Origin: Candidatus Eiseniibacteriota bacterium
GTDB lineage: Bacteria; Eisenbacteria; RBG-16-71-46; CAZAMP01
DNA: 64,000 nucleotides
Assembly: GCA_965224245.1 (NCBI GenBank)
Contig: OZ245046.1
Span: forward strand, 5,184,001 to 5,248,000
Reading direction: 5' to 3'
Shown in pieces: positions 51,605 through 55,121 of the stretch (position 1 is the first letter of the stretch; every line of letters begins with the position of its first letter). Made by a program: the position numbers and the translations under genes. The notes beneath the pieces are model-generated. The model was not told where the DNA came from and did no database searches. It worked only from the letters and a program-made list of their open reading frames with translations.

Positions 51605-52627
51605 CTAGGCGTCGCGCTCGCGCCCGAGCCGGGCCACCAGGGTCGTGGCCAGCACCCCCGCCAGCACGAGGCCGACGGCGCCGGCGGCCTCGAACGTGCC
51701 GGGGCGGAAGAACGCGGTGGGATAGTCCTCTCGATCGAACTCGTGGAGGGTCTCGGCCGTGACCACGCGGCCCTTGATGATCGTCTCCCCGAGCGTGGGC
51801 TCGAGCGTCTCCTGAAACGGCCAGAGGCCCACCACTGCACCCACGAGGAGGCCCAGCAGCACGCCGAGTGTGGGCCCGGCGTGACGGGCGAGAAGCCACT
51901 TCAAGAGATTGCTGATCCCCACCACGCCGACGACGACCCCGAGCCCGACCGGCAGCACGACCCGGAGCCCCACGTCCAGGATCGCACCGGCATCGCGGGC
52001 CTCCAGCGCGAGCTTGAACGCGTCGACTCCCGAGAGGATCGGGATGTACATGCCCATCACGAGGAGCAGGTATCCGCCCGAGACGCCGGGCAGGATCATC
52101 GCGCTCGCACCGGCCACGCCGGCGAGTGCGAACATGATCCAGCCGGCCTCGGCCCCGCCGGCCGCCGCGGCGCCACGCTGCTGGGCCAGCGCGAGGAGGG
52201 CCATCCCGACGAACCCGACGGCCGCACCCGCCCACACGCGGCCGTCGACCGGGGCCGCGAGTCGCCAGACGACCGGAACGCCGCCCAGCGTCAGGCCGAT
52301 GAAGAGGCTGTACATGACCCAGCGGTGGTCGACGACCAGGTCCTTGATGATGCCCGCGCCGAGCAGCACCGCGACCATCGCGGCCAGCACGACCGAACCG
52401 AGGACGACGAGCGATGGCCGGTTGAGCCGGAGCGTCGTGACGTCGGCCACCGCCTGGATGAAGCGCGGATACACGCCGGCGGCCAGGAGCATCGTGCCCC
52501 CGCTGATCCCGGGCACCAGGTTCGCGAGTCCCATCAGGACGCCGCCGACCGACCCGCGAGCGGCGAGGGCCGGCAGCGCGATCGACGCCGCGTCGCGGTC
52601 GGGCGTGGCGGGTCGGGGAACGGACAC
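51605..52627 (-). CDS. DUF368 membrane protein (undecaprenyl-phosphate translocase family)
   Basis: MGLANLVPGISGGT and AMILPGVSGG motifs; LWPF. Confidence 0.9.
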   Translation of the reverse strand: MSVPRPATPDRDAASIALPALAARGSVGGVLMGLANLVPGISGGTMLLAAGVYPRFIQAVADVTTLRLNRPSLVVLGSVVLAAMVAVLLGAGIIKDLVVDHRWVMYSLFIGLTLGGVPVVWRLAAPVDGRVWAGAAVGFVGMALLALAQQRGAAAAGGAEAGWIMFALAGVAGASAMILPGVSGGYLLLVMGMYIPILSGVDAFKLALEARDAGAILDVGLRVVLPVGLGVVVGVVGISNLLKWLLARHAGPTLGVLLGLLVGAVVGLWPFQETLEPTLGETIIKGRVVTAETLHEFDREDYPTAFFRPGTFEAAGAVGLVLAGVLATTLVARLGRERDA

Positions 52628-52717
52628 GGTCAGCCTCCGGTCGGGTTGGTGACGTCGGGACGGGTCTCGGGTGTGCGCGTGACGATCGAGATGGTCGATC
52701 GACCCTGCTCGTTTACC

Positions 52718-53065
52718 TCACATGAGGCGCAGGCCGCAATCGGGACACTCCTCGGTGCCCGACGGAGATCGATGCTGGCACGCGGGACACGTGATCTCCG
52801 GTGCGTCGTGATCGATGAACGCGGCCGCCGCGGCGCGCTCCTCCTCGGAGGCCTGCTCGAGCCAGTCCGACTCGATGAGCGACATGGCCGACTGTGCGTC
52901 GTGGCTCGCGACCGCGAGCCAGACCTTGGTGCCTCAGGAGTTCGCGGCCGACGGCGGGGCGACCAGCTCCGCGTCGACGCCGGCGCCCCGGAGGCGGGCT
53001 CGGATCGGCTTCAGATCGGGCAGGCGCCCTTCCAGCAACACGACGATTTCCGGCTCTTCGGTCAC
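52718..53065 (-). CDS. Probable selenoprotein (115 aa, Sec44) with C-terminal CxxC-x10-CxxC zinc ribbon; absent from the ORF track
   Basis: GAGGA RBS 7 nt before GTG 53065; MTEEPEIVVLLEGRLPDLKPIRARLRGAGVDAELVAPPSAANS-TGA(52936-52934)-GTKVWLAVASHDAQSAMSLIESDW...CPACQHRSPSGTEECPDCGLRLM*. Confidence 0.85.
52902..52921 (-). promoter_or_regulatory. Bacterial SECIS element
   Basis: UGGCUCGC-GGUC-GCGAGCCA perfect 8-bp hairpin beginning 12 nt after the UGA; spacing and GGUC apex resemble the E. coli fdhF SECIS. Confidence 0.8.
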
Positions 53066-53092
53066 GATGAGATCCTCATGAAACGCGGCGGC

Positions 53093-53126
53093 AAAAAGCG
53101 ACCCCACCTTCTCGAGGTGGGGTCGC
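53093..53126 (-). terminator. Rho-independent terminator downstream of the LanC-like gene
   Basis: Minus strand GCGACCCCACC-tcgagaa-GGTGGGGTCGC-TTTTT. Confidence 0.8.
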
Positions 53127-53192
53127 GGGCCCCGATTGGTGCCTCCGGGACACTACCCCGGCCGGTCGACCGGCCCGGCCGGCAGCGGTCGA

Positions 53193-55121
53193 CTACCTCA
53201 GAATTGTAACCCGGATCGGCCGGTCCGTGACGGGATTCCCTCGGGCGTCCATCGGTCTCGCGAAGTACGTCCCCTGCGGCACGCGCCCGCCGATCTCGTT
53301 GCGCCCGTCCCACGTCCACGCCGCGCCGCCGACCGGGGGATCCAGCAGCGTTCGGACGAGGCGGCCCCGCACGTCGAAGACGTCGACGCGCGCGGCATCA
53401 GCGGGAGTCGTGATCGCGACCGTCGCACGAGACGGGTTCGGCCGCGCGCTCGCGACGACGTCCGCGACGCGGGCCACTGTCTCGTGCAGCGAGGATCGGC
53501 CGGAGCCCCCGCCGGTCAGGTCGTACTCGAACTGCCAGACGAGCCCGCCGGCCTCGGGCGCGGCCGCGTCCTCGGTCCACTGGAGCGCGTCGACGTACAT
53601 CGACAGCGCGGGTTCGATGTACACGAGGCTCGGGATCGAGTCGTAGAACAGGTTGGTCAGTCCCGTGAAGCCCCAGATCATGTCGGTTCGGTTGGCCACG
53701 GGATCGGAGATGTTTGACGGGAACATCCGGCCGACCTCGAACGGGATCATCTGATCGGCCAGCCACTGCGCGGCACGCAGGAAGCCGAGGCCGTGATTGA
53801 CGTCGCCGGTCACGTCGTACGCGTCGCCGAGGAAGTTCATCGGTCCGATGTGCCCGACGCACCAGTTCGTCCAGTCGAAGTGCGCGGTCCAGTCTAGCGT
53901 CCCGGCCGGCGTGTCGGTGTTCCCCTCGTGCAGCACGTAGTTGGCGGCGCCCTCGACGAACTCGAGGTAGCGGGCGTCGCCCCACGCCTCGTAGGCCGAG
54001 AGGAACGCGCGTCCGATCCCGGCGGCGCCGTTGCCGGTGATCACCGAGTAGGTCTCGGTGCCCGGCGCGACGTCCTCGCGACCCGGCCAGCGATACGCCG
54101 GCTGATACGGCGATTCGGGGACCTCCTCGGACATGTTGATCAGGTACTTCAGGGCGCTCCGGGCCAGCATCTCGTACTCCGGGTCGTCCCAGGTGATCGC
54201 CATCTCGATCAGGAACTCGGCGATGCCCGAGACGCCGGCGCAGAACGACGTGCCGTAATAGCCGCTCAGCATCGGGGAGAACACGCCCCACTTGAGGCCC
54301 CCGTTCCCGTCGTCCTCGGCGAGCTCGAGATAGCTCTGGGCCACGCAGCGTACGACGTTCTCGGCCTCCGCGCTGCCGGTGGCCCGGAACACCTCGACCG
54401 CGCCGCGGCCCACCGCGGCCACCCCGTAGGAGCCGATGTTGTAGAAGTGCGGGTGCTGGAACAGCTCGAAGAACACGCACCCCTCGGCGTCCGCGTACTC
54501 GGGGAACCACGTGGCGAAGTAGCTGAGCGGCACCTTCACCGCGTCGAGCCACACCATCGCGTCGTCGGCCATGTCCCGGTAGGCATCGGCCTGGGCGGTG
54601 GAGCCGCCGGCGGCCAGGACGCGGAGATAGCCCTCGGCGAACGCCATCGCGTTCCACGCGGTGGACGCCTTGGCGATCTGCTCGTAGTAGGGCGTGGCGT
54701 TCTCCCAGCCCGGCCACGCGTGCCCACCCTCGGGCTGGGGCTGCGCACGCGTCGCCATCCAGTCCAGTGCCCCGGTCCAGTACGTGTCGCTTCCGACGTA
54801 GTTCGCATCCATGAAGAGCTGGGCCACCGCGCCCATGCTGACGATCCCGTGCGCGCGCCACTGGGTGTAGTCGGTCTCGTCGTCGGGCAGGCTGCTCGGG
54901 CTCGCGACCACGTCGACGCCCGTGATCGCCGTGTGCCCGGTCGATTCCTGATACGCGCGAATGGCGGTCTCGATCTCCTTGGGGATCGGGGCGTGAGGCA
55001 CGTTGGCGCAGTCGGTCGCGGGCGATGGTCCGATGCCACACGCGATCGCGACACCGGTGGTGATCACGACCAGCCCGGCGGGTGTCAGCGTGGACCACAG
55101 CGCAAAATGGGTTCGACGCAT
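53193..55121 (-). CDS. Exported LanC-like (alpha/alpha)-barrel protein with FlgD-Ig CTD
   Basis: Repeated GxxG helix-loop motifs (SYGVAAVG, SFCAGVSGIAEFL, GNGAAGIG, NWCVGHIG, IWGFTG); CTD PNPSR..FDVRGRLVR..WDGRN..QGTYF. Confidence 0.7.
   Translation of the reverse strand: MRRTHFALWSTLTPAGLVVITTGVAIACGIGPSPATDCANVPHAPIPKEIETAIRAYQESTGHTAITGVDVVASPSSLPDDETDYTQWRAHGIVSMGAVAQLFMDANYVGSDTYWTGALDWMATRAQPQPEGGHAWPGWENATPYYEQIAKASTAWNAMAFAEGYLRVLAAGGSTAQADAYRDMADDAMVWLDAVKVPLSYFATWFPEYADAEGCVFFELFQHPHFYNIGSYGVAAVGRGAVEVFRATGSAEAENVVRCVAQSYLELAEDDGNGGLKWGVFSPMLSGYYGTSFCAGVSGIAEFLIEMAITWDDPEYEMLARSALKYLINMSEEVPESPYQPAYRWPGREDVAPGTETYSVITGNGAAGIGRAFLSAYEAWGDARYLEFVEGAANYVLHEGNTDTPAGTLDWTAHFDWTNWCVGHIGPMNFLGDAYDVTGDVNHGLGFLRAAQWLADQMIPFEVGRMFPSNISDPVANRTDMIWGFTGLTNLFYDSIPSLVYIEPALSMYVDALQWTEDAAAPEAGGLVWQFEYDLTGGGSGRSSLHETVARVADVVASARPNPSRATVAITTPADAARVDVFDVRGRLVRTLLDPPVGGAAWTWDGRNEIGGRVPQGTYFARPMDARGNPVTDRPIRVTILR

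Follow-up and report, generated by a model that had tools for sequence, protein, structure and literature searches.

The 64,000-nucleotide stretch of contig OZ245046.1 from Candidatus Eiseniibacteriota bacterium (positions 5,184,001 to 5,248,000 of the forward strand), hereafter the window, contains an apparent gap between a DUF368 gene and a LanC-like gene. The question raised by this locus is whether a minus-strand frame in the gap, which is interrupted by one in-frame TGA, encodes a selenoprotein. The initial annotation, made from the letters alone, had described the frame as running from GAGGA-N7-GTG (53065) to the TGA at 52720-52718, with an internal TGA at codon 44, a C-terminal CPAC-x10-CPDC motif and, 12 nt after the UGA, a perfect hairpin with a GGUC loop. 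All these elements were found in place (the hairpin at 52921-52902, the Cys motif at residues 93-110 of 115), and both flanking genes were identified on the minus strand. Our comparisons of sequences indicate that 53065-52718 (minus strand) is very probably a genuine, unannotated gene for a 115-residue selenoprotein related to the (seleno)protein DG. The features of the gene are as follows.

52718-53065, minus strand: predicted selenoprotein coding sequence with a GTG start, the selenocysteine (Sec) TGA as codon 44, 115 residues and the final TGA at 52720-52718.
53065-53063, minus strand: GTG start codon; the N-termini of five 115-residue homologs align here.
53073-53077, minus strand: Shine-Dalgarno-like GAGGA, 7 nt 5' of the GTG, read from the sequence; putative ribosome-binding site.
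52934-52936, minus strand: in-frame TGA, predicted Sec44 (U44), a conserved column with TGA or Cys in relatives.
52902-52921, minus strand: putative bacterial Sec insertion sequence (SECIS) hairpin with an 8-bp stem and the loop GGUC.
52868-53041, minus strand: DUF2007-like alpha/beta domain, residues 9-66, assigned from hhalign, an AlphaFold2 model and an alignment with the structure 2hfv.
52736-52789, minus strand: C-terminal Cys4 zinc ribbon with CPAC (93-96) and CPDC (107-110); zinc binding is predicted from the sequence.

Homologs were collected by a genome scan with one genome per species, which gave 31 loci. Among 60 sampled genomes of the same class, full-length homologs (42-52% identity) were present in six, and every one of them has a single internal TGA; the remaining matches in this sample were weak zinc-ribbon hits or partial stretches. 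In the homologs the TGA column stands in the context N[ST]-U-[GS][TPV]K..LAVAS, and the protein is conserved on both sides of it. The initial annotation had proposed to check whether homologs carry Cys or TGA at position 44, and both were found: 12 of the 31 loci had TGA in this column and eight had Cys. The other 11, titled Anaeromyxobacter/Anaeromyxobacteraceae, Proteobacteria, delta proteobacterium or Myxococcales, had neither in the printed stretch. Altogether, the short-form Sec genes (the window gene and the 12 loci from other genomes) had TGA in the same column in 13 of 13 cases.

An exhaustive profile search of the protein database returned 516 relatives at E<=0.001. The composition of the Sec column was counted among the best 150 of these 516; 96 representatives cover the column, and 66 of the 96 have Cys. 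One contiguous Cys form (P0006) covers profile positions 1-115 with E=1.1e-34. Three representatives (P0012, P0041 and P0079) have Trp in the column, for example GGWGTQFWLAVAS; this could be a true Trp, or a TGA that the gene caller read as Trp under another code. In addition, 31 of 149 representatives were proteins of about 68 aa that start just 3' of the Sec column, as truncated Sec genes would, and the four database hits of the first protein search (67-69 aa) were of the same kind. Gene callers routinely truncate the short-form genes.

Such split gene calls would also be expected if the TGA were a true stop. The locus would then be a decayed gene or a pair of small open reading frames (ORFs; 43 aa and about 55 aa), and the LAVAS codons would yield the hairpin as a mere side effect. 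We regard this as very improbable. In all 13 genes, at 42-53% identity, the TGA occupies one column and the protein is conserved before and after it; the two halves also occur joined in contiguous Cys forms. The 43 codons 5' of the TGA were free of insertions and deletions across five genes, and codon position 2 was the least changed in 10 of 10 pairs from this part. The first start codon 3' of the TGA in the window is M61, and a start there would remove a conserved strand.

An assembly or base-call error, with TGA standing for TGC or TGT, is hardly conceivable when 12 other genomes have TGA in the same column. Contigs from three runs span the codon without differing letters, which adds little, since all three come from one sample that is perhaps the assembly's own source; the contig of a fourth run covers 52906-52937 only, at lower likeness. 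In the same and in a second sample, further contigs (records 4, 8 and 11) match the TGA-plus-hairpin stretch alone (52894-52937), with 2-4 differing letters, and are probably homologous genes of other community organisms.

On the plus strand, a 488-aa ORF (51743-53209) lies antisense to both the DUF368 gene and the selenoprotein gene and has no Pfam match. That this long and open frame is the real gene, with the minus-strand frame as its shadow, deserves next to no credence: it overlaps the well-supported minus-strand DUF368 gene (135 bits), and it is the minus-strand frame that has 516 database relatives. Long antisense ORFs are common in GC-rich DNA, and 51743-53209 is probably such a shadow ORF.

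The genome contains the complete machinery for Sec insertion, which the initial annotation had named as a test. A tRNA-Sec was detected with 71.9 bits, above the Rfam cut-off, and ARAGORN called it as tRNA-SeC with the anticodon TCA. SelA (427.6 bits), the SelB-specific winged-helix domain (59.5 bits, in a 671-aa frame) and SelD (378.4 bits) were found in the same genome. The selD gene (G000:C1:4218184-4219107, L027, outside the window) itself has one in-frame TGA, and therefore probably encodes a Sec-containing SelD. SelA was present in five of five tested carriers of the TGA form and, in a comparison of the two forms, in four of four carriers, including three of the Cys form. The presence of SelA was therefore rejected as a marker separating Sec-form from Cys-form carriers, and absent machinery does not explain the choice of Cys.

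The hairpin UGGCUCGC-GGUC-GCGAGCCA (52921-52902, minus strand) is a perfect 8-bp stem beginning 12 nt 3' of the UGA, and it lies within the codons for W-L-A-V-A-S-H. Its core consists of 6 bp (52919-52914 with 52909-52904) closed by the loop GGUC (52913-52910). When the 1325 TGA triplets of the window (both strands, any frame) were scanned for a perfect tetraloop hairpin of at least 8 bp, placed 16-37 nt 3' of the TGA and with G in the first two loop positions, only two hits were obtained, both of them one palindrome read on either strand; with stems of at least 6 bp the count was 11. In E. coli fdhF the apical loop reads GGUC as well, and its GU is essential. The window hairpin resembles fdhF and the bacterial SECIS consensus in its 4-nt loop with G, G and then U and in the 20 nt from UGA to loop. 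It differs in that the conserved part is merely a 6-bp stem tied to the peptide LAVAS, and neither a conserved lower stem nor a bulged U was seen in the short forms. No Rfam family matched the window at its gathering score.

Published criteria for bacterial SECIS elements (Fig. 2 legend, PMC13188914) are a stem of 4-16 bp with a loop of 3-9 nt, a G within the first two positions of that loop, a UGA-loop distance of 16-37 nt and an MFE (minimum free energy) of at most -7.5 kcal/mol. We applied them as published, and the hairpins of all 13 short Sec forms lie within all four limits, with stems of 6-8 bp and MFE values from -7.8 to -14.5 kcal/mol. The window hairpin has 8 bp, the loop GGUC, 20 nt between UGA and loop and an MFE of -14.5.

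All 13 hairpins are in the same register. Their six core pairs are intact in every one of the 78 cells, whereas the two outer pairs are poorly kept (7/13 and 2/13). One core pair joins two synonymous sites, the wobble bases of Leu and of the second Ala. It is CG in eight genes and UA in five, without any mismatch, and both states are intermixed among the loci titled Eisenbacteria and those titled Nitrospirota. The covariation score was 0.188 against 0.110 in shuffles and was reached by one of 500. All 13 genes have G as the third base of the codon preceding Leu, though the residue there varies (W, Q, L, R, S), and Ser in the hairpin is encoded by AGC wherever this residue is Ser. The loop reads GGUC in 11 genes, GGUU in one and AGUU in one, and the common Val codon GTG is never used. 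With the peptide held and codons drawn at this genome's usage, a 6-bp stem with an RGUY loop would arise 3.6% of the time, and all 13 genes keep the free positions of stem and loop fixed, which argues against a by-product of a decayed or split gene.

Several observations weigh against the selenoprotein reading or lower its support. The folding energy of the 66-nt stretch is ordinary for GC-rich sequence (z = -0.29), and the weight of the SECIS case therefore lies on conservation. Four of the six core pairs are dictated by the peptide L-A-x-A-S, and for the larger part of the stem pairing cannot be told apart from protein conservation; both of these points would also fit a true stop. The 13 Sec forms are mutually related, and the shuffle statistics thus overstate the support. 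Furthermore, a 6-bp hairpin at the SECIS position also forms in L043, a Cys form that shares the LAVAS peptide (GCUGGC-UGUG-GCCAGC, within L043:4121-4174). Compared with the Sec forms, two of its stem pairs differ in both partners; L043 may have switched from Sec to Cys recently. A hairpin of 4 bp forms in L042, a close relative of L043, and three other Cys forms have none. Thirty of the 96 representatives that cover the Sec column have neither Cys nor Sec there (A, G, R, W, L, P and others), which argues against an essential catalytic role of this residue. A search for a sigma-70-like promoter of the gene gave none, and no gene neighbour common across phyla was seen among the 31 loci, so the neighbourhood points to no pathway. 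Finally, the window protein scores 74.1 bits against the NCBIfam model NF049953 and falls below its cut-off of 130 bits.

With these points included, the complete Sec machinery, the TGA in the same column of all 13 genes, the covarying SECIS and the Cys in 66 of 96 relatives lend good support to Sec insertion at codon 44, as the initial annotation had proposed. UGA codon 44 would be read by the standard bacterial route, in which SelB with Sec-tRNA(Sec) would be recruited by a short SECIS with a stem of 6-8 bp and a GGUC loop starting 20 nt after the UGA. The putative SECIS would lie inside the coding sequence and consist of codons for the beta strand that follows (W-L-A-V-A-S). Such an embedding in conserved beta-strand codons may explain why LAVAS is near-fixed in the Sec forms and variable in the Cys forms.

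The model NF049953, 'zinc ribbon-containing (seleno)protein DG', matches the window protein with E=1.3e-20 over profile positions 54-171 of 172, and the window DNA with 70.2 bits. Short Cys forms scored 65-71 bits from position 56 or 58 onward, like the window protein, whereas proteins of 172-176 aa from the profile search scored 182-224 bits over the whole model. Positions 1-53 correspond to an extra N-terminal zinc ribbon that is visible in these long forms. In the in-frame sequence upstream of the window gene no such ribbon was found; this sequence has no CxxC pair and contains a terminator. Because of the score below the cut-off and the missing N-terminal ribbon, we treat the window gene as a short-form variant related to DG and not as a member of NF049953.

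The gene is thus not a new family; the wider family was predicted by deep-Sep in 2025. The initial annotation had not recognised a classic selenoprotein family; the wider family is already named and published as a predicted selenoprotein (DG, NF049953). Its mention of deltaproteobacterial relatives with a Cys/Gly-rich loop ahead of KxWLAV proved right, as in GDGCGSCAPKLWLAVAS of L043. 'Hypothetical protein DG' is described in PMC12013277 as one of nine new selenoprotein families predicted by deep-Sep, found in two Desulfosediminicola genomes, and both TGA-containing and Cys-containing homologs are reported there. A 2026 review lists DG under NF049953 with the Sec motif GUxG (PMC13188914). The passages on DG in PMC12013277 and PMC13188914 give it no function, and the deep-Sep authors may already have had short forms among their homologs. 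A literature search pairing DUF2007 with a zinc ribbon found nothing.

The window protein and DG are homologous over all 115 window residues. They share the core of a DUF2007-like domain with the Sec/Cys loop, the helices and the C-terminal CPxC...CPxC ribbon, and both are known as predictions alone. They differ in the N-terminal zinc ribbon of about 53 residues, which is present in DG and absent from the window gene, and in the loop, which in the window protein has no second Cys. The window reads S-U-G-T at the Sec, unlike the published GUxG. The record titles differ as well: Eisenbacteria, Nitrospirota and others for the short form, and Thermodesulfobacteriota/Desulfobulbus-type titles for the long form (e.g. 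Desulfobulbus, Desulfocapsaceae, Electrothrix, Thermodesulfobacteriota).

Long forms above the NF049953 cut-off were found in 260 of 301 sampled genomes of one order. In the phylum around genome G061, of which 301 genomes were sampled, nine long-form members were seen, none with TGA. Sec-bearing long forms turned up only on sampling the order, and two were retrieved. One of them, G458 (L127, G458:C35), reads ...CSSSC-U-GSTFYLQV, with the Sec in the same column as in the window; the GU of its loop is at +25/+26 from the UGA, as in the window, on a different stem sequence. The other, G635 (L126, G635:C94), reads ...SRSG-U-GGPDLQLEV, and its G-U-G-G fits the published GUxG. Compared with the window gene, its Sec lies one column earlier and its hairpin, of 7 bp, occupies a different register (GU at +21/+22). 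Long-form Sec at two adjacent columns, with SECIS elements in different registers, suggests separate gains of Sec within the DG family. A quick tree of 113 rows and 111 columns left many forks unresolved. It has a split with a Shimodaira-Hasegawa-like approximate likelihood-ratio test (SH-aLRT) value of 95, with every one of the 13 short Sec forms on one side, together with short Cys forms, and the long-form clade with its two Sec members opposite. The well-supported branches of this tree force at least two switches between Sec and Cys.

In long-form loci L061, L067-L074 and L096-L125, the DG gene was directly 3' of an HslU-like AAA+ ATPase gene on the same strand in 28 of 39 cases; the likeness to HslU is our reading of the product's sequence. 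A DnaE-like gene was downstream on the other strand in ten long-form loci. All these loci come from one order, and the HslU-DG adjacency may therefore be inherited synteny.

The initial annotation had also assigned a DUF2007/PII-like N-domain, and for DUF2007 this assignment is supported by remote homology. Although PF09413 (DUF2007) did not match the window's own protein even at E<=1, hhalign against a profile of 21 DUF2007 domains from this genome and its relatives gave 95.7% and E=9.5e-9 over 58 columns, joining residues 9-66 with DUF2007 positions 4-65 of 66. PF09413 matched six of the 103 family members directly (E<=0.01, best E=2.8e-6), and the relative P0093 matched NF040569 (DUF2007_rel) with E=9.2e-6. 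The likeness to PF09413, described as 'putative prokaryotic signal transducing protein', is thus at profile level across nearly the whole domain; the difference is that the aligned DUF2007 sequences have no conserved Cys in the beta2-beta3 loop. For the C-terminal part, Pfam gave only weak zinc-ribbon matches on the window protein. In the 103 sequences the ribbon is near-invariant: C93 and P94 never vary, and conservation is 90% or higher for A95, C96, C107, P108 and C110.

An AlphaFold2 model built on the 103 sequences had a mean predicted local distance difference test (pLDDT) score of 93.2 and a predicted template modelling (pTM) score of 0.72. It consists of beta1 (7-14), alpha1 (15-27), beta2 (32-35), a loop with U44 (36-46), beta3 (47-53), alpha2 (54-71) and alpha3 (74-81), followed by the ribbon strands; the block bearing the loop was the least confident (87). 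Foldseek against the Protein Data Bank (PDB) gave no match at E<=0.001, with GlnK among the weak matches (E 0.07-0.3), and a sequence search of solved structures gave nothing significant (best E=0.023). The structural matches were all to generic small alpha/beta folds. In a wide structural aligner the ring-building domains of EscJ/PrgK were top (Z 8.2-8.8), with PrgK at Z 8.8 and a root-mean-square deviation (rmsd) of 1.8 A over 57 residues. The structure 2hfv, which we take to represent DUF2007, ranked fifth (Z 6.7, rmsd 4.9 A, 69 residues, 19% identity), a Z within the aligner's range for a common arrangement. Further down, with Z near 4.5-5, came ACT and PII-like domains (1o51, PII-like, Z 4.8; SbtB, Z 4.5).

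PII/GlnK, ACT and EscJ/PrgK domains share the beta-alpha-beta-beta-alpha arrangement with the model. The functional residue of PII sits on the T-loop, which is the beta2-beta3 loop, and the Sec of the window protein is predicted to be on the same loop. No sequence relationship of these domains to the window protein was seen, nor any significant Foldseek match, and the fold resemblance does not indicate function.

What the protein might do can be approached through its loop. The DUF2007-like domain would present Sec44 on the exposed beta2-beta3 loop, followed by two helices and then the Cys4 zinc ribbon, which could be a structural or docking module. In 62 of 66 Cys forms a second Cys was found within 10 residues upstream of the Sec column, in 59 of them at a distance of 1, 3, 4 or 5. 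The consensus of the long-form loop is CGKGCCG, seen in 45 of 67 long forms parsed. Such a loop Cys pair suggests dithiol/disulfide chemistry or the binding of a soft metal. No partner Cys of this kind was present in six of the 13 short Sec forms (including that of the window), which are partly close relatives, and in one of the two long Sec forms. Loss of the partner Cys where Sec is present fits a nucleophile that cycles with an external thiol.

From this pattern, the loop selenol is most likely redox-active or metal-binding. In the first case the loop chalcogen would act as a nucleophile in redox chemistry and form a selenenylsulfide with a partner thiol; the Cys forms would do the same chemistry via their loop Cys pair. 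We infer a redox-active selenol cycling with a thiol partner only tentatively, at a little short of an even chance.

With the same gene and the same Sec decoding, the loop selenol could instead be a ligand for a soft metal (Cu, Hg, Ni, Fe or Fe-S), and the protein a metal chaperone or sensor and not a redox protein. The Cys/Gly-rich loop of the Cys forms, with its nearby second Cys, would suit this function, and 40 of 103 members had weak matches to the nickel metallochaperone HypA (best E=5.5e-6). Sec may also be a metal ligand in several newly found families, according to the 2026 review (PMC13188914). The HypA matches, however, cover the zinc-ribbon part (residues 62-111 of the window protein) and not a metal site; a loop with a single chalcogen, as in the window, would chelate poorly unless the protein oligomerises; and no metal transporter or regulator is among the conserved neighbours. 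A metal ligand is on balance rather unlikely.

A third possibility is that the chalcogen carries sulfur or selenium as a persulfide or perselenide, in a small carrier like TusA or of the DsrE type. Such a carrier would be compatible with the small alpha/beta domain and its reactive Cys or Sec in an exposed loop, and with the frequency of the long form in the sampled order (260/301 genomes), the database members of that form having names such as Desulfobulbus and Desulfocapsaceae. The proposal is an analogy, and neither the sequence nor the fold matched TusA, DsrE or rhodanese. No sulfur-metabolism gene is a conserved neighbour either, the common neighbour in the long-form loci being HslU-like. 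We consider a carrier function improbable.

The short form could also be read as a whole. It would then be a selenoprotein subfamily of its own, widespread and systematically left unannotated, in which at least 31 clusters (50% identity) are seen only as truncated calls; it would have gained Sec separately from the long-form DG clade, and Sec would have made the otherwise near-obligatory partner Cys dispensable. Its single selenol, placed on the beta2-beta3 loop (T-loop-like) of a DUF2007 'signal-transducing' domain, would act as a one-residue redox or metal sensor that signals via the zinc ribbon to a partner. Taken jointly, these steps make a doubtful proposal.

The surroundings of the gene in the window are as follows.

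51605-52627, minus strand: DUF368/VCA0040-like gene (135 bits), downstream of the selenoprotein gene.
53193-55121, minus strand: LanC-like/FlgD-Ig gene, upstream of the selenoprotein gene.
53088-53126 (also given as 53126-53098), minus strand: 12-bp intrinsic terminator-like hairpin with a T-run, which closes the upstream LanC-like gene and lies outside the selenoprotein gene.

In the 642-aa product of the upstream gene, a weak LanC-like match (29.6 bits) is unusually paired with a FlgD Ig-like domain (32.8 bits) at the C-terminus. The terminator-like hairpin sits just 5' of the ribosome-binding site of the selenoprotein gene; the search for such sites returned two, whereas shuffles would give 0.2. 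Not one of the gene's three neighbours in the window (DHO dehydrogenase, DUF368, LanC-like) was within 4 kb of the homolog in any of the 31 loci, in a comparison of stop-to-stop ORFs that is noisy in GC-rich DNA.

The novelty is modest and consists of the short architecture missed by the NF049953 cut-off, its spread under titles such as Eisenbacteria and Nitrospirota, the SECIS apparently written into a conserved beta strand, and the contrast in partner Cys between Cys and Sec forms. No function for the family follows from this analysis. The gene is invisible to standard annotation pipelines, and its database relatives appear as fragments of about 68 aa; NCBI's own family model would miss it too, as its score does not reach the cut-off. 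A short-form model would recover such genes in lineages titled Eisenbacteria, Nitrospirota and others. For the family itself, the loss of the partner Cys in Sec forms is a natural comparison of what Sec can do alone.

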